The notes under the pieces are model-generated. The model searched no databases and was not told where the DNA came from. It saw only the letters and a list, made by a program, of their open reading frames with translations. Made by a program: the position numbers and the translations under genes. From positions 32,001 through 96,000 of the forward strand of contig JBHLOY010000010.1 of assembly GCA_048939995.1 (NCBI GenBank): 64,000 bases of DNA, read 5' to 3'. Each line of letters begins with the position of its first letter. Within the stretch, counting starts at the first letter, position 1. The stretch comes from Promethearchaeota archaeon (GTDB lineage: Archaea; Asgardarchaeota; Lokiarchaeia; Sigyniarchaeales; SOKP01). This document shows, piece by piece, positions 20,092 to 55,442 of the stretch.

Positions 20092-20961
20092 TTGAATGAT
20101 AATGAGATACCTGATATTGATCTGAAAGAAACGATTCAAAACTCTCAACAAGAAATATTAGATGAGCGGATGGAAAATATTCGGAAGAATATGGAAAAAA
20201 TTAAACATAAAATTGTAATTATTTCTGGAAAAGGGGGCGTTGGAAAAACTACTGTAGCAGTTAATCTTGCAATGAGTTTAGCGAGTATAGGATTAAGAGT
20301 TGGATTACTAGATGTGGATATTACAGGACCTAATGTTAACAAAATGCTTGGAATTAAACCAGATGTGAGACCACGAGTAGATCCAGAAGCAAAAAAGTTC
20401 TATCCTGTGAATGGACCCTTAAATATTAAAGTAATGAGTATGGCATTTTTAACACAAGATAACGACACTCCTGTAATTTGGAGGGGTCCAATGAAAATGA
20501 GTGCTGTACGACAATTCCTTGGTGATGCTATTTGGGGAGAACTTGATTACTTAATATGCGATTTACCACCTGGTACAAGTGATGAAACTCTTGATATTTT
20601 ACAGCTTATTCCTGATGAAAATGTAATTATTGTTTCTACTCCTCAAGAGGTTGCTCTTATGGATGCAAGAAAGACCATAGCAATGTCACAAACGATGCAG
20701 AGAAAAGTCTTGGGAATCATTGAAAATATGTCTGGTTTTAAATGTCCTCACTGTAACAACTATATTGATCTTTATCCAGCTGGAGGGGCTGAAAAGGCCT
20801 CAAAGGATTTTGGCATCACACTCTTAGGAAAAATTCCATTTGAAGTGGAAATAGGTCAACAAGGGGATCAAGGTCTTCCATTTATACTAAAGAATCCAGA
20901 TAGCGAAAGTAATAGAGCCTTTAAATCAATAATTAAGAATATTAGGGAAAAGTTGGAATAA
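20092..20961 (+). CDS. mrp: Mrp/NBP35 (ApbC) Fe-S cluster carrier ATPase
   Basis: SGKGGVGKT, VIWRGPM, DLPPGTSD, STPQ, ENMSGFKCPHC. Confidence 0.95.
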   Translation: MNDNEIPDIDLKETIQNSQQEILDERMENIRKNMEKIKHKIVIISGKGGVGKTTVAVNLAMSLASIGLRVGLLDVDITGPNVNKMLGIKPDVRPRVDPEAKKFYPVNGPLNIKVMSMAFLTQDNDTPVIWRGPMKMSAVRQFLGDAIWGELDYLICDLPPGTSDETLDILQLIPDENVIIVSTPQEVALMDARKTIAMSQTMQRKVLGIIENMSGFKCPHCNNYIDLYPAGGAEKASKDFGITLLGKIPFEVEIGQQGDQGLPFILKNPDSESNRAFKSIIKNIREKLE

Positions 20962-21212
20962 AATTTCTTATTCTCTTTTATCAATACTTTTTATTTCTCT
21001 CCAAATCCCAATCTTACCTAGAAAGGGTTGGTTTTCTTTTAAAATTTAAAAATATTTAAATCAAAATATTCTCATATTATGAATTTTGATAAATATAAAA
21101 ACAATTTAAAAGGATAAGTGTTACTATGTTATTACATATTTTTAGAAATCATCTAATTACACGTTAAGGGGAATACGTTATTAATTTAGGGCCTGAATTA
21201 GGAATATCAAAA

Positions 21213-21680
21213 TTGCTAAAAGGAATTGTAATTTGTAAAGAAACTGGTGTATATTTGTTAGATTTGATTTTAGATTCAGAAATAAATCCTATCTTGTTAT
21301 CTTCTTTTGTGGGTGCTCTTTCTTTATTTGGGGAGGAGAACATGGGAAAAATTGAGGAGATAACAATTAAAGGGTTGGATATTCAAATGATTATTGTATG
21401 TAAACATAAACTTATATTAATTGCGATAATGGATAAAGACTTTTTGAAACAAGACATCAGAGAAGAGGCTGAAAAAGCTCTTGATATGTTTTATACCCTC
21501 TACAAGAATGAGATTGATGAGTGTGTTGATGTTTTTATATTTGACTCATTCAAGAAAATCTTACTCAAACAAATAGAAGATTTCTTTAATAAGATAACTG
21601 ACAAAGAAAAAGAAGTAAATATTGGAAATTTTGGATTTTTTACAGAGGCTATTGCTAAGATGAGAAATCATCATGATTAG
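21213..21680 (+). CDS. Longin-like domain protein (Asgard type)
   Basis: GIVICKETGVYL...NPILLSSFVGALSLFGEE...F...Y pattern typical of longin folds. Confidence 0.55.
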   Translation: MLKGIVICKETGVYLLDLILDSEINPILLSSFVGALSLFGEENMGKIEEITIKGLDIQMIIVCKHKLILIAIMDKDFLKQDIREEAEKALDMFYTLYKNEIDECVDVFIFDSFKKILLKQIEDFFNKITDKEKEVNIGNFGFFTEAIAKMRNHHD

Positions 21681-21736
21681 CGGCTCAACTATAAAACTAT
21701 CCTAAAAAAAATTAGGGAGTTAAGAAAAGGCTTCCT

Positions 21737-22222
21737 CTACTCTTTTTTTGCGAGACTCCCAAAAACTATCAAAGCAGCTCCAATAAATGGACCAATCACA
21801 CCAAAAAAAGGTTTATATCCACCTCCAGTAAAACTCCAGTGATTATATCCATATAGATTATAAAATACTTCCATCATGATAATCCAAGCAAGAGTAGACA
21901 CAATCACCAACCCTGCTAATATAATCAATTTCCATCTGAGTTTCTTTAAATTCAGTGAAACTCTAAGATATGTAGTGGTAAGAATAATTACTATAAGACC
22001 ACTTGAGAATATAATCAGGGCAAGAATCGTAGAAATTGCAACAAGTAATAAATCTGTTCTTAAAAGATATATAGCAAGGGGGTCAATGTCTACACCTATT
22101 TGAGTCATCCAAACATAGTAAAGAGGAGGACCATCATTATAACTAGTTGGAGTTAAAATTGAGATTAATACAATTAAACCTCCAATAATATTAAGAATCC
22201 AAAGATTTTTTCTAATTTTCAT
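21737..22222 (-). CDS. Four-TM membrane protein
   Basis: Four hydrophobic segments; GVIGPFIG near the C-terminus. Confidence 0.75.
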   Translation of the reverse strand: MKIRKNLWILNIIGGLIVLISILTPTSYNDGPPLYYVWMTQIGVDIDPLAIYLLRTDLLLVAISTILALIIFSSGLIVIILTTTYLRVSLNLKKLRWKLIILAGLVIVSTLAWIIMMEVFYNLYGYNHWSFTGGGYKPFFGVIGPFIGAALIVFGSLAKKE

Positions 22223-48841: not shown

Positions 48842-50020
48842 TTGAATGATTTCAAAATTGAAGATTCAATTATTTTGATTGATACTTCTAGATCGATGTT
48901 AAGAAGAGACTTTAAACCAAATCGATTAATTGCAGCCTTGAGTGCCGTAAAGGCTTTTATCCAATCAAAATTTGAAATTGACCCCAAAGATAGAATAGCA
49001 CTTGTATCCTTTGGAGAGAGTGCCAAAAAGTTATGTCCTATTACTTATGAAGAGGATAACCTATTTGAAGCTTTCAAGAAGATCCAAATTTCTGGTAAAG
49101 GGTTATTACATGAAGGTATAGCATTTTGTTTGCAACTGTTAGTTGAGGAAATGAGAAAAGTAGGAGGAAAAACCAACAGAATTTTTATAGTTTCAGATAA
49201 TAAGATTCTTTATACTGAAAAATTGCATAAAATTGTGGAGATTGCCAAAGGTTTAGGAATTTATATAGATTCCTGCCAATTAGGGCAATCTGAAGGATAT
49301 TCAGGAAGTATTCTTAAACAGATTGCTAAAAACACTGGAGGTCAATACGGTTTTTTTAATAATTCTAAAGCATTAATTAATGCCGGAAATTCATTTGCTT
49401 CAAAAAAAGAGTTTAAAGAGTCAATCGATTATTTTTCACCTATAAAAGATAAAAAAGAAACTCCATTAATGGGTGAAATTGCTTTGGATTTACGAAGGCC
49501 TAATCTCTTAGATATTCGTTTAATGATGAGTGATAATGACAAATTTGGTGAAAAGTGTCAGATCTGCCATTCTGTAAAATCACCTATTACTGATGCTGAT
49601 TTTTACTCTGAAGGAAGATATTGTCCTTCATGTGATCGCCCAATGCATTTATCATGTGCAGCAATGTGGGCAAAAAAAACTGAAAAGAAGGAGCGGATCT
49701 TTAGATGTCCCTTTTGCTTTTTTCTTTTAGAATTACCCTCTTCATTTTCAAAATTAATTGAAGATAAAGAAGAAAGTCTTCCTAAAGTAAGATTAGTTAA
49801 TGAAGGAGAAGAAAAAACAACAAAAATGATTGTCTTTCCCAATGAAAATATCCATGAAATTAATGAATCATGTTCCTATTGTCACAGCATATTTTTAGGA
49901 GAATATAAAGTTTATCAATGCGAAAAATGTGGAGCTTATTATCATGAACCTTGTTTAGAAAAAGTCACAAAGGAACTCAGGGGATGTAGGAACTGTGGCG
50001 CTCAAATTATTAACTATTAA
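48842..50020 (+). CDS. VWA domain + two RING-like zinc fingers (TFIIH p44/Ssl1- or Rpn10-like)
   Basis: IDTSRSMLRRDFKPNRL VWA start; CQIC...CPSC...HLSC...W...CPFC; CSYC...CEKC...HEPC...CRNC. Confidence 0.8.
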   Translation: MNDFKIEDSIILIDTSRSMLRRDFKPNRLIAALSAVKAFIQSKFEIDPKDRIALVSFGESAKKLCPITYEEDNLFEAFKKIQISGKGLLHEGIAFCLQLLVEEMRKVGGKTNRIFIVSDNKILYTEKLHKIVEIAKGLGIYIDSCQLGQSEGYSGSILKQIAKNTGGQYGFFNNSKALINAGNSFASKKEFKESIDYFSPIKDKKETPLMGEIALDLRRPNLLDIRLMMSDNDKFGEKCQICHSVKSPITDADFYSEGRYCPSCDRPMHLSCAAMWAKKTEKKERIFRCPFCFFLLELPSSFSKLIEDKEESLPKVRLVNEGEEKTTKMIVFPNENIHEINESCSYCHSIFLGEYKVYQCEKCGAYYHEPCLEKVTKELRGCRNCGAQIINY

Positions 50021-50101: not shown

Positions 50102-52191
50102 GTGATTAATTTAAGCAAAGCTCATAAACATAAGTGGATCATTACTAGTGCTTGGCCTTATGTGAACGCAAATATTTCTTGAGAGCTTTAAGAATTAGCG
50201 TACTTCCACATCTAGGCAACTTAATAGGAAGCACATTATCAGCAGATGTATTTGCTCGCTTTCTACGAATGAAGGGAGATGAAGTATTATTTGTATCTGG
50301 TTCAGATATGCATGGAACTCCCGTAGCAGTGGAAGCTAAAAAAACAGGTGTTTCAGTAGAAGAATTAGCTATAAAAAATCACAATAAAATTAAGGAATTG
50401 CATAAAAAATGGAAAATTTCATTTGATAATTACACTCAAACGCATAATCCTACACATATCGAATTTGTGCAGAAATTTTATTTAGATATCCAAAAAAACG
50501 GATATATCTTAGAAAAAGATATAGAATCCCTTTATTGTGAAAAAGATAACCTTTTTCTTCCTGATAGGTTTGTAGAGGGGATTTGCCCTCACTGTGGAGC
50601 TGAGAAAGCGAGAGGGGATCAATGTGACAATTGCCAGAAGTTATTGACACCTCTCGAGCTTAAAGAATCGTACTGTTCGATATGTGGCGCAAAACCTATA
50701 CTTCGAAAAACTAAACATTGGTATATGGATTTTCCTAGGCTTCAAAATCAATTGAAGAAATTAATTGAAAAAAATGAAATTATCCCTCAAAATGCTCGGC
50801 AAATGTGCTTAAACAGTATCGAGGAAGGTCTTCCTGAAAGAGCCATTACGCGAGATTTAGAATGGGGTATTCCCGCACCGTTTAAAGGAGCTGAAGGAAA
50901 AACGATATATGTATGGTTTGAGGCTGTGTTAGGTTATGTTAGTGCTTGTTTAGAATGGGCTGACAAGCTAAAAAATCAACCAAAAAAATTTGATTACTTT
51001 TGGAAAGATAAAAATACCAAATCGGTTTATTTTATAGGGAAGGATAATATCATCTTCCATTTAATTGTGTTTCCAGGACTCCTAATGGCATATAATGCCG
51101 ATAAAAAGGATTCTGATAAATTAGTTCTTCCATATAACGTCTCTTCTACAGAATGGTTAATGCATGAAAATGAGAAATTTTCAAAATCTAGAGGAATAGG
51201 GATTTGGATTGATGAGGCGTTAGACCTGGCACCATTGGATTATTGGAGATTCAATTTAGTTTATAATCGTCCGGAATCAAGTGATACCTCATTTTTATGG
51301 TCTGAATTTGAAAATAACATTAAGACTTTAAATGATAACATAGGAAATTTCATTCATAGGACATTAACCTTTATTGATAAACAATTCAATAAGATCATTC
51401 CAGAGAAAGTTGAATATGACAAAGTAGATAAGATTTTTGTTGAAAAAATCAATAGAATAGGCGTTGATGTCGGAAAAAGCTTAGATAATTTTAGTTTACG
51501 TAAGGCAATACGAGATGTTGTGAGTTTTGGAAAAGAAGGAAATGTTTATTTAAACGAAAAGGCACCATGGCATTTAATAAAGAAAGATAAAAAAAAAGCG
51601 GGACATGTATTTAATATATGCGCTCAAGCGGTATATGCTTTGGCAGTTCTTTTAAGCCCATTTACTCCTGGGACAGCAAACAAAATTATTTCATTTTTGA
51701 ATGATCCTAAATTATCCGAATCATCTTGGGATAGTATTAATGAAAATGCTGTCAGTGCAGGAGTTAAAATTAAAAGTCCAGAGCCAATTTTTCAAAAATT
51801 AGATATTGAAGAAATAAAGAATAATTTAAATAAAATCAGAGAAGAAAAGCAAAAGGGAGGAAAAATTGAATTGATATCTTATGATTATTTTAAAAAGTTG
51901 GATATTAGAGTCGCAAAAATAGAATCTATTGAGAAGGTACCTAAAGCAGATAAACTATATAAATTAGGAATCGATATTGGGAATGAGAAAAGGACACTCG
52001 TAGCAGGTTTAGCGGAACACTATAAAATAGATGAGCTAATTAATAAAAAAATTATAGTGCTAACAAACTTAGAGCCAAGAAAATTACGAGGAATTCAAAG
52101 TGAAGGAATGCTGCTTGCTGCTGTGGATAATGAAAAGGTATCTATTTTAATACCAGACAAAGAAATTGAGATCGGGGCAAAAGTAGAATAA
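50102..52191 (+). CDS. metG: Methionyl-tRNA synthetase, two exons: 50102-50171 and 50204-52191 (685 aa after splicing)
   Basis: Exon 1 gives [23 protein letters not shown]; exon 2 gives (I)PHLGNLIGS, Zn knuckles, KFSKS and a C-terminal Trbp111-like domain. Confidence 0.95.
50172..50203 (+). other. 32-nt bulge-helix-bulge (tRNA-endonuclease-type) intron in metG mRNA
   Basis: Central 4-bp helix ACGC(50166-69)/GCGT(50198-201), 3-nt bulges AAA and ACT, flanking helices on both sides. Standard cut sites restore the reading frame. Confidence 0.88.
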
Positions 52192-52193
52192 AT

Positions 52194-53438
52194 CTATAAT
52201 TTTAAAGAAAATACTGGATTTAAGCGGGCTATAACTTCTCCTAGATCTAGTTGTAGCATTTTTAAGATTACGTCTCTTCCTCGATATTCAAATTGTAATT
52301 CTTTAACATTCTTAATTATTTTTAATTTATTACGATCTTTTACTAACTCACACACAAAATATCTCTGGTCATTGTATTCCAATATTTTTTTCACATTTTG
52401 AATATCTGGCAAATTATAGCCTCCTCCATGTGCTAAAATATCTACATTTCTCAATAATTCCAATAATTCCAATTTTACCGCTCTTTTTAAAAAATTATTA
52501 TTTTTTAAGGTTATCTCTGAAAGATTTTTCTGTCCCATAAATAGATAACAAGCCATATCTGCTCTAAGAGCGGTAGGAAAAACATTGGAGGTGATATACT
52601 TACAATTGAGATCAGTACAATTACTCCCTAAATACATATTATTATAATCTTTTAAAAACTGGTGTGGTTGATTGCAAATTATTTGAAAATCATTACCAAA
52701 TAGATGATTTGCAATGAGTAATCTTTTTCTGCTTGAAAAATTCAGAGCTTTTTTATTAAAATCTAAGTACTCATCAGCCTCAGAATCAATAAGGATATAT
52801 TGTTTTCCAAAAATGGTATTCTCTTCTAATGCATGTTCTTTTAATGTTTTAGATTGATCAATATACAAACCAATTCCATGTTTATCATCTCTGAATTCTG
52901 GAGCAGAACCATGTATAAAAAAAGTATATGGTGGAAAATCAATATCAGTTAGATTTTTAGTTTTAAAACAATTAATGAAATGGTTTGAGATCCCATAGTC
53001 CCAATTAATTAGAATGTCTTTATAATATAATTCTGTGGATTTTATTTCATCAATCTTCTTAATAAGATCATAGGGGTCTGGTAGTTCATATAATCCTCCA
53101 CATAATATACCACAACAATTAGGTTTTATATTTAGAAAAATTAATTTTTCATTTCCAGATCCCCAATTTAATCTACCGCCATATCCGAGACCAGAATTCC
53201 ATCTGAAATTATTTTTTGATATTGTTTCATCTGGAGAGGAGATAAATGCTGCTTTAGGTTCAAACCCATATTTTTCTTGAATAAGTTGAAATTGAGCAAG
53301 TCCATACTTCATATTAGCTCTACATAGTTTTGAAGCGCCATCATTTAAACCAGTTGAAAAAATAAACTTTTCTGCTCTACTTAGTAACTCAACTTTATCC
53401 ATTTGAGATAAATTCTCAGAAATACTAGAGGTCGCCAT
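52194..53438 (-). CDS. Divergent RtcB-family RNA ligase
   Basis: Ordered motifs PD...G..GG, NCCG, SNHF, HGS, HQ, HGGG and C-terminal EVIARLNPVFSLK match the RtcB order PDxH, DINCG, GNHF, HSGS, HN, HGAG, V..L.P....K. Confidence 0.75.
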   Translation of the reverse strand: MATSSISENLSQMDKVELLSRAEKFIFSTGLNDGASKLCRANMKYGLAQFQLIQEKYGFEPKAAFISSPDETISKNNFRWNSGLGYGGRLNWGSGNEKLIFLNIKPNCCGILCGGLYELPDPYDLIKKIDEIKSTELYYKDILINWDYGISNHFINCFKTKNLTDIDFPPYTFFIHGSAPEFRDDKHGIGLYIDQSKTLKEHALEENTIFGKQYILIDSEADEYLDFNKKALNFSSRKRLLIANHLFGNDFQIICNQPHQFLKDYNNMYLGSNCTDLNCKYITSNVFPTALRADMACYLFMGQKNLSEITLKNNNFLKRAVKLELLELLRNVDILAHGGGYNLPDIQNVKKILEYNDQRYFVCELVKDRNKLKIIKNVKELQFEYRGRDVILKMLQLDLGEVIARLNPVFSLKL

Positions 53439-53461
53439 AGAATACGAAAATTTCTTCTTAT

Positions 53462-53491
53462 TAAACCTAAATTATATAAACCTAAATTATA
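53462..53491. repeat. Perfect 15-bp tandem direct repeat in the divergent promoter of the RtcB-like gene
   Basis: TAAACCTAAATTATA x2. Confidence 0.8.
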
Positions 53492-53578
53492 ATAATTATT
53501 TCGTTGATATATAATATTAATGCATGTTAGTTTCAAATTTAATCATATGATCTATTAAATATTACTCTGCAAAACACT

Positions 53579-54196
53579 ATGAATATTCTATACGATTCAT
53601 TAAAAAGAATAAAAATGAATGGAGATTTTGAAGGTTCGATCATTACTAAATGTAATGACAAACCTAATTCATTAATTTTCTCAGACAATATGAAAGTTAC
53701 AGATAATGAAGGGATATTCATAACAAAAGGTTTAAAAGTCGGCTTTGAAAAGGCTTACAATAAAAGGTCTGCCTACTCAAAAGTAATGGATTTTCACTGG
53801 AATGAAAACCTATCAAGAATTCAATACTGTGTCCAAATCCCTGAGGATATAATGCATCTCTATTCCGAAGGTCAGTTTTCGGATACTTTTCCTTACACAT
53901 TGACTCTTCTTCATACCGCAGCATTATTTTTAGATGATTATGAGTCAAAGATTAATCATTTGGAATTTTTCAAAGGTGAAATACTTAAAAATCCCATTTG
54001 CCTTATAATGAATGGAATTTTAATTGCTGATAGAGTTGTTATTAATCATAGAGGAGATCCAGTTTTTTATGATTGTCTAATTATCGGAAGGGATAAAAAT
54101 GATGATTTAAAAATAAGCTATGAGCCTTTAACAAATGTTGATGATAAAGTAGTCAAATACATAATAATCCTCGGTATTGAAGAATTAAGAATTTAA
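53579..54196 (+). CDS. Hypothetical protein
   Basis: 205-aa ORF, 4 bp upstream of the ATPase gene; no recognised motif. Confidence 0.65.
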   Translation: MNILYDSLKRIKMNGDFEGSIITKCNDKPNSLIFSDNMKVTDNEGIFITKGLKVGFEKAYNKRSAYSKVMDFHWNENLSRIQYCVQIPEDIMHLYSEGQFSDTFPYTLTLLHTAALFLDDYESKINHLEFFKGEILKNPICLIMNGILIADRVVINHRGDPVFYDCLIIGRDKNDDLKISYEPLTNVDDKVVKYIIILGIEELRI

Positions 54197-54200
54197 AGCG

Positions 54201-55442
54201 TTGTTTATGTTATTATTTGAAGATAAAAAACGGATGGTCCTCAATTTCTTAAAGACAGGGATAAATCCCTTTGAAAAGTTTGTAAGTACTGGTGAAATTA
54301 GAGAAGATTTAAGTTTGGTTAATTCCAGAAAAGACTTATTAGAATCAATTATCAATGTTATAGAAAAAAAGAAAAACTTCATTTTACCTATAATTGGTGA
54401 TGTAGGAATTGGAAAAACCCATTTATATTGGGCTTTAAAAAATAGTCTTTACTACTTCAATACGATTCATATTTCACTTGAAAAGGTATATAAGAAATTC
54501 TTTTATAATACTTATTCAGAATTCATTGAAACGATTGAAGTTGAACCATTGCGAAACATTATTAATCAACTTTGTAATAGCTGGGGGGCATTAAAAAGAA
54601 AATATGGATTCTTTCATGTTGCAGACCTCGAAAAAGTGAAAAGAGAAGCATATGAAAAATTAAATGAAAATTTTTCTGCAGATGAGAAATTAGCATTATT
54701 TGATGTAATCACAGGTATAACCACACATCAACTAGATCCTTATAAAAGAATTGAAGCGGAAAGATGGTTATTAGGCGAACTGATGAATGTAAGAGAGTTA
54801 GCTCACCTTAATCTAAAATCTGATCTAAGCAAAAGCAAACATGCTTATATAATGCTCAAAATACTAATTGAAAATTCGAAGTTAGGTACAGTTTTATTTA
54901 TTGATGATTTTGAGAAGATTATTTCAATCCCAAAGTTATTGGGAGCAGATGATGATGAGGATGAGGTTTTTGACAGAAGTTGGCTCTATGGTAAGAAACA
55001 ATCACCCGATGAGTTTGTAACACAAAAAGTTCTCGAGAAAATTCTTAAATTACAAAGAATCGAAGATCTACGTATATTAATTGTTTTAAGATCACTCGAA
55101 TCATTAGAACAAGTTAAAAAAAAGATAAAGAAAGCTAAAACTCCTTTGACTTTGGAATTCCTAGAACCATTTCGACTACAAAATTTTACTAGGGAAGATA
55201 TTGATGAATTTTATCTAAAGACTATGGAGATCTTCCTTCAAAATTTTAATTATTTACATTTTTATGATGACTTCCCAAATTCTATCTTTCCTTTAACTGA
55301 AGATATTTTAGAAACCATCTATTCCAAAACAAAAGGTAATCCAAGGGGAATATCCAAATTTCTCATAAAAATTTTCAATGATATTATTTCTTCTCATGAA
55401 GGACTGAATATAATCTTACAAAATTATAAAGATTCTAATTAG
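54201..55442 (+). CDS. AAA+/P-loop ATPase (DUF2791/BrxD-like)
   Basis: NPF at the N-terminus, GDVGIGKTH, AERWLLGE, LFIDDFE, GNPR. Confidence 0.75.
   Translation: MFMLLFEDKKRMVLNFLKTGINPFEKFVSTGEIREDLSLVNSRKDLLESIINVIEKKKNFILPIIGDVGIGKTHLYWALKNSLYYFNTIHISLEKVYKKFFYNTYSEFIETIEVEPLRNIINQLCNSWGALKRKYGFFHVADLEKVKREAYEKLNENFSADEKLALFDVITGITTHQLDPYKRIEAERWLLGELMNVRELAHLNLKSDLSKSKHAYIMLKILIENSKLGTVLFIDDFEKIISIPKLLGADDDEDEVFDRSWLYGKKQSPDEFVTQKVLEKILKLQRIEDLRILIVLRSLESLEQVKKKIKKAKTPLTLEFLEPFRLQNFTREDIDEFYLKTMEIFLQNFNYLHFYDDFPNSIFPLTEDILETIYSKTKGNPRGISKFLIKIFNDIISSHEGLNIILQNYKDSN

Follow-up and report, generated by a model that had tools for sequence, protein, structure and literature searches.

Does the unannotated reading frame that abuts the intron-bearing methionyl-tRNA synthetase gene (metG) of an Asgard archaeon encode a divergent RtcB-type RNA ligase, and does it serve that intron? 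The question arises from a 64,000-nucleotide stretch of DNA (hereafter the window) belonging to a 3.75 Mb Asgard genome that is 98% complete. A first-pass annotation of the window had placed a 414-residue open reading frame (ORF) 2 bp from metG and convergent with it, had read it as a distinct RtcB subfamily, and had proposed that the two genes form an intron and ligase locus, adding that their adjacency could be coincidental. The gene arrangement is as described there: the RtcB-like ORF occupies 52194..53438 on the reverse strand, starts with ATG and encodes 414 residues with no internal stop, and its reverse-strand stop codon (52194-52196) leaves 2 bp to the metG stop TAA (52189-52191). At its other end the gene is separated from a divergently oriented gene for a 205-residue protein by a 140 bp intergenic region (53439..53578), the sequence of which was read directly. 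This region contains a TATA-like element, TTTATATA, at 53480-53473, 35-42 nt 5' of the RtcB-like ATG, and two tandem copies of ATAATTTAGGTTT (53490-53478 and 53475-53463, together spanning 53463-53490) that overlap it, and is a probable archaeal promoter.

The motifs on which the first-pass annotation relied are present in the order in which RtcB carries them: SPD (residues 68-70), G.GYGG (83-88), PNCCG (106-110), SNHF (151-154), HGS (176-178), HQ (259-260), HGGG (337-340) and a terminal motif that we read as L.P....K, one position longer than had been noted. In an alignment of 55 family members (21-83% identity) G87, H153, F154, H176, H259, G271 and H337 are invariant, and D70, C109, G110, N152, G338, G340 and R386 are at least 90% conserved; G83 and P336 also belong to the invariant or near-invariant positions. 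The conserved set thus coincides with the motifs flagged at the outset, and their conservation is far beyond chance.

Fold and range of the RtcB-like family

The relationship of this protein to RtcB is visible to profile and fold methods only. We take the RtcB references to be Pfam family PF01139 and the structures of the Pyrococcus horikoshii (1UC2, 4DWQ), Thermus thermophilus (2EPG) and human (7P3B, 8ODP) enzymes. A Pfam search with the RtcB-like protein gave no match at E ≤ 0.1, the curated RtcB model included, the NCBIfam RtcB models NF007153 and TIGR03073 scored 15.4 and 12.6 bits against cut-offs of 407 and 272, respectively, and a single-sequence phmmer search of the PDB found nothing. 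When a profile of the family is compared with the PDB, four RtcB structures rank first (E about 0.009), with NHF aligned to N202/H203 and HxS to H234 of the P. horikoshii enzyme and, in 2EPG, HGGG aligned to HGAG together with the C-terminal tail. Alignment of the family with 31 canonical Asgard RtcBs using hhalign covers residues 147-413 with an E-value of 2.6e-4 and a probability of 42%, and pairs NHF, HxS, HQ with HN (P. horikoshii H329), HGGG with HGSGR, and the C-terminal Y/L/P/K motif. Matches at E 1e-12 were considered as canonical RtcBs that might bridge the two families and were rejected, as they have no Pfam match and a different C terminus.

The fold comparison is more telling. An AlphaFold (AF2) model of the protein (pLDDT 95.8, pTM 0.93) retrieves RtcB in all of its best 16 Foldseek matches (E 8e-9 to 2e-5, probability 1.0), and VIA-align, which is independent of Foldseek, superposes model residues 17-414 on 2epg with a Z-score of 21.5 and an rmsd of 3.4 Å over 304 residues, the next chain having a Z-score of 5.1. 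Judged by its predicted structure, the product of the ORF has the RtcB fold, as the first-pass annotation had supposed.

The protein is not the housekeeping ligase of its genome. A canonical RtcB is encoded elsewhere (E 7e-168), paired with Archease on contig C19 (20161-20580 on the forward and 20594-21901 on the reverse strand), the two genes lying tail-to-tail and 13 bp apart. Archease is a known activator and partner of RtcB. Among 301 Asgard genomes sampled, canonical RtcB is found in 285 and the RtcB-like family in 136 (about 45%). The RtcB-like protein is therefore a second, strongly remodelled RtcB-fold family, paralogue-like and distinct from the housekeeping tRNA-splicing ligase, which upholds the earlier assignment to a separate subfamily.

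Relatives are numerous, with 477 among clusters at 90% identity and 227 matches among representatives at 50% identity; among the matches listed, lengths are 402-418 residues and identities 69-88%, and every named one is a "hypothetical protein". Database relatives carry the labels Promethearchaeota or Lokiarchaeota. Six further loci, about 35% identical to the Asgard members, occur in Altiarchaeales. One cluster is labelled Anaerolineae, and a scan for related loci starting from that cluster found nothing, so that occurrence in bacteria rests on a single record label. Across the same loci the RtcB-like protein is as well conserved as MetRS (88 against 85%, 74 against 73% and 72 against 68% identity), and by this measure it is strongly constrained, evolving about as slowly as the synthetase encoded next door. 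We found no description of the family in the literature on RtcB in Asgard archaea or on RtcB paralogues.

Active site, gene partners and candidate substrates

Reference residues are given in PhoRtcB numbering, following published work (PMC8051266, PMC9745838). By alignment, the Mn1 ligands Cys98, His234 and His329 correspond to Cys109 (at least 90% conserved), His176 and His259 (both invariant), the Mn2 ligand His203 to the invariant His153, and the nucleophile His404 to the invariant His337, which lies within the sequence LAHGGGY. We propose that Cys109, His153, His176 and His259 are metal ligands and that His337 is the nucleotidylated residue; the equivalences in the N-terminal third, including that of Cys109, are weaker, because there they depend on a non-significant alignment combined with the fold match and the order of motifs. 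The 5'-OH strand is contacted in RtcB by Asn202, Arg238, Arg190 and Gln194 (PMC8051266), the first of which is retained in the family as Asn152. Guanine is contacted by Lys480 (at O6) and Glu206 (at N1/N2) (PMC9745838); the lysine corresponds to the conserved penultimate Lys413, and the position of the glutamate (residue 156) varies, with D, N or E in the majority of the family.

Other parts of the RtcB active site are missing. The position of Asp95 aligns to Lys105/Pro106, with K-P-N-x-C-G in place of D-x-x-C-G, so the aspartate of the DINCG motif is indeed not kept, as had been remarked on first inspection, and without an acidic counterpart of this Mn2 ligand the two-metal site may be altered or absent. 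Asn107, two residues before Cys109, is the closest polar residue that is conserved; it is invariant in the closer set of relatives and could stand in for the aspartate. HGAGR reads HGGGY, without the arginine. The position of Arg238, four residues past His176, is variable (P, D, A or S), and no conserved Arg or Gln was found 8-12 residues ahead of Asn152 in the family alignment, leaving Arg190 and Gln194 without a counterpart; the segment that bears these two residues is about 40 residues shorter than in RtcB. All of the residues missing here are retained by the canonical RtcB of the same genome. The family is also less basic, with a median pI of 6.3 against 8.4 for canonical Asgard RtcBs.

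Taken together, we consider the protein to be probably an active enzyme with the RtcB fold whose role is other than that of a metG intron ligase. The conserved catalytic core argues for RtcB-type chemistry, and the protein is most likely an active enzyme that nucleotidylates a histidine of its own and acts on a non-canonical phosphate substrate. In such an enzyme the divalent-metal site formed by Cys109 and three histidines would bind a purine NTP, probably GTP, and His337 would become covalently nucleotidylated; the NMP would then be handed to a phosphomonoester to give an X-pp-G anhydride, which a hydroxyl may attack to form a phosphodiester, as happens in RtcB. Its substrate would be something other than the customary two RNA ends bound in the RtcB manner.

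The genes found beside the RtcB-like gene vary by lineage, and none is universal. In the window, the divergent gene (53579..54196, forward strand) encodes a 205-residue protein of no recognised family, a family search with it having given no match, and this pairing is kept at 27 or more loci within the taxonomic family. Its model is all-beta (pLDDT 78.5) and weakly matches Sm/LSm chains (Z 5-6.5) in its C-terminal half; taken separately, both halves give weak Sm/Hfq-like matches. The idea that this neighbour might be a cryptic HD protein was rejected (hhalign probability 0.6%). It is followed in the same direction by the gene for a 413-residue P-loop ATPase (54201..55442, forward strand) with weak AAA_16 and archaeal-ATPase/STAND similarity, relatives of which are found near the RtcB-like gene in eight loci of two Asgard families, the window included. 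As a separate observation, the 205-residue protein gene and the ATPase gene form a conserved pair that is kept together where the RtcB-like gene has been lost.

Further partners are enzymes. An HD hydrolase of about 215 residues (PF01966, closest to the YedJ/HDIG structural-genomics group) is a neighbour in 12 loci, and in at least seven of them lies immediately upstream of the RtcB-like gene and co-directional with it. A GalT-branch HIT protein of about 405 residues is a neighbour in seven loci, and a metallophosphoesterase of the cyclic-nucleotide phosphodiesterase type in three. In one metagenomic cluster (P0151/P0272, 743-748 residues) the RtcB-like protein is fused to an N-terminal APH-type kinase (PF01636, E 3e-20). 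The Altiarchaeales loci (L149-L154) have a gene for a 240-residue TrmI/Gcd14 tRNA m1A methyltransferase head-to-head with the RtcB-like gene in all six cases. In three of these loci acetyl-CoA-pathway genes come after the RtcB-like gene (RACo, with CdhD in two).

Absence of the RNA contacts, a lower pI, fusion to a kinase and partners of nucleotide or NDP-sugar type incline us, tentatively, towards a nucleotide or a small phosphorylated compound as the substrate, in preference to an RNA or tRNA end. Spelled out in full, a GTP-dependent, His-guanylylating ligase would convert a small phosphomonoester or mononucleotide to X-pp-G and couple it to a hydroxyl, working with kinase, HD or GalT-like partners; in all these particulars together the proposal is doubtful.

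It is quite possible, instead, that the family comprises specialised RNA-end enzymes, which would ligate broken tRNA or other RNA, or cap it with 3'-pp-G, in heal-and-seal repair, with the HD, metallophosphoesterase and HIT partners trimming or de-capping the ends. All three kinds of enzyme are also familiar as modules that heal or de-cap nucleic-acid ends: end healing typically employs HD and calcineurin-type phosphoesterases, and aprataxin-type HIT enzymes strip the ppG caps made by RtcB. The HIT partner seen here, however, belongs to the GalT/NDP-sugar branch and not to the aprataxin branch, and the APH-type kinase of the fusion belongs to a class that acts on small molecules. In favour of an RNA-end enzyme, the family keeps Asn152, which corresponds to the residue anchoring the nucleophilic 5'-OH; against it, the other three contacts (Arg238, Arg190 and Gln194) have no conserved counterpart, and the proteins are less basic than canonical RtcB. 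Neighbours that act on tRNA in two lineages, namely MetRS in one Asgard family and TrmI/Gcd14 in Altiarchaeales, favour an RNA or tRNA substrate and count against the small-molecule lean, although the MetRS gene is tail-to-tail with the RtcB-like gene and is not co-transcribed with it. The weak Sm/LSm-like fold matches of the divergent 205-residue neighbour also speak for RNA, as does the precedent of the fold itself, whose sole known chemistry is the joining or capping of polynucleotide 3'-phosphates (PMC8051266).

That the protein is catalytically dead, and merely binds nucleotide, metal or RNA as a regulator or scaffold, is improbable. The absence of an acidic counterpart of Asp95 and of the arginine after the nucleophilic histidine would fit such a role, as would the ability of three close relatives to do without the gene (described below), but the putative metal ligands and nucleophile are exactly the positions that stay invariant across 21-83% identity, the pattern expected of a working active site, and the invariant Asn107 of the closer set could replace the aspartate. 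Our preferred reading is still an active, His-nucleotidylating enzyme, with the tentative small phosphorylated substrate proposed above.

The metG insert and the splicing toolkit

metG (50102..52191, forward strand) matches MetRS models with an E-value of 1e-204 and is the convergent neighbour of the RtcB-like gene. Its exon boundaries were placed by hand with the cleavage rule for bulge-helix-bulge (BHB) motifs, giving exon 1 at 50102-50171, a BHB-type insert of 32 nt at 50172-50203 and exon 2 at 50204-52191, all on the forward strand. The insert breaks the frame between W-P-Y-V-N-A and P-H-L-G-N, just ahead of the HIGH motif, and in its predicted fold an outer helix leads to a 4-bp helix (ACGC/GCGU) with flanking bulges and then to an inner hairpin, a topology that agrees with the bulge-helix-bulge as derived from the tRNA 37/38 case. 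Cutting each strand two nucleotides 3' of the 4-bp helix yields GCA AUU CCA, joined after the first letter of AUU, and so restores N-A-I-P, the consensus of uninterrupted relatives. The insert is found in four of 46 related genomes (the others being at L089, L092 and L074), one of them from another genus, where the sequence inserted at this codon is 31 nt long and unrelated, and in all four the cleavage rule restores N-A-(I/V)-P-H-L-G. The metG intron thus looks real, and on this point the first-pass annotation is borne out.

Upstream of metG, at 48842-50020 on the forward strand, is a gene for a 392-residue protein with VWA, Ssl1/Tfb4-like and PHD/RING/C1 zinc-finger matches. Its architecture resembles that of TFIIH p44/p34, and at five other loci of the taxonomic family its gene likewise adjoins metG.

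The genome is well provided for splicing. In addition to canonical RtcB and Archease it has two genes with an EndA domain (on contigs C3 and C28), each a frame of 208 residues, which suggests a two-subunit endonuclease. These EndA, RtcB and Archease proteins suffice for splicing.

Does the RtcB-like gene nonetheless belong with the intron? It is convergent with and adjoins metG in 28 of 29 close loci, and five further genera of the same taxonomic family, with six loci between them, show the adjacency throughout. Elsewhere it disappears: seven other Asgard families contributed 14 loci and Altiarchaeales six, and metG is adjacent in none of them. Within the taxonomic family, among genomes with a readable metG 5' end, 43 have the RtcB-like gene, the insert being present in four and absent in 39; three lack the gene, and none of these has the insert. 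In the latter three, which are of the same genus and 98-99% complete, metG is followed directly by the genes for the 205-residue protein and the ATPase, the RtcB-like gene having been precisely removed in a clean loss. The synteny and co-occurrence tests therefore indicate that the adjacency to metG reflects a gene order passed down within a single family and not a splicing module; metG is context only and stands outside any module. Adjacency is a feature of a single lineage, independent of the metG intron, and the check that the first-pass annotation had itself proposed for the functional link goes against that link.

The proposal of an intron and ligase locus is accordingly all but refuted, with 39 of 43 metG-adjacent genomes lacking the insert. 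That the gene encodes a ligase dedicated to the metG intron, or to mRNA introns at large, could be argued from the 2 bp that separate the gene from an intron-bearing metG, from its presence in four of four intron-bearing genomes examined, and from canonical RtcB and Archease, whose tail-to-tail genes illustrate that convergent neighbours can be functional partners, but it is scarcely credible when adjacency persists without the insert in 39 genomes, when a gene present in 43 of 46 genomes would be found in all four by chance (about 0.76), when members of the family in seven other Asgard families and in Altiarchaeales lie away from metG, when three close relatives have cleanly lost the gene, when a full canonical toolkit of two EndA genes, RtcB and Archease is present, and when the residues that would contact the 5'-OH strand are missing. 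A tRNA-type intron in the metG mRNA, then, needs no private ligase, and an attractive account of a self-contained module is removed.

Comparison with characterised RtcB systems

The RtcB-like protein and RtcB share their fold, the order of their motifs, the C-terminal ending and counterparts of seven residues (Cys98, His203, His234, His329, His404, Asn202 and Lys480). They differ in that the RtcB-like protein is about 70 residues shorter, is missed by the Pfam model, is less basic, and lacks Asp95, the arginine of HGAGR, and Arg238, Arg190 and Gln194; it also coexists with the canonical RtcB-Archease pair and has other gene partners. To our knowledge RtcB is the only enzyme family that joins RNA 3'-phosphate to 5'-OH ends, and we know of no characterised member that acts on anything other than nucleic acids. 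Retention of the metal and histidine core together with loss of the residues that hold RNA points to either a new class of substrate or a new mode of holding RNA, each of which would widen the capabilities of the RtcB fold. If the small-substrate reading is true, this would be the first RtcB-fold enzyme with a natural substrate other than a polynucleotide end. In either case, a family that ranges over Asgard archaea and Altiarchaeales has gone undetected by curated models despite conservation at the level of housekeeping proteins.

Extra RtcB genes are not without precedent. Bacterial paralogues occur in repair operons, as in RtcAB-RtcR and RtcB2-PrfH (PMC9304027, PMC6514570). As in those systems, the RtcB-like family represents an additional RtcB-type gene with sporadic loss and accessory genes that vary by lineage, and its faint NCBIfam matches (NF007153 and TIGR03073) are to the bacterial-type 'RNA ligase RtcB family protein' models. 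The bacterial paralogues, in contrast, are recognisable RtcBs with the full set of catalytic and RNA-binding residues, and clustering of neighbours across the RtcB-like loci examined found no conserved neighbour of RtcA or PrfH type. Fast sequence change is typical of conflict systems; the RtcB-like sequence is conserved at housekeeping level and is not fast-changing.

The closest precedent for the metG insert itself is the splicing of BHB introns from archaeal mRNA, known from the cbf5 pre-mRNA of Crenarchaeota, where EndA and RtcB carry it out (PMC2738675). The RtcB-like gene is not associated with the metG intron; what the window shares with this precedent is the 32-nt insert, which is BHB-like in shape and from which the standard cleavage rule restores the frame as N-A-I-P-H-L-G.
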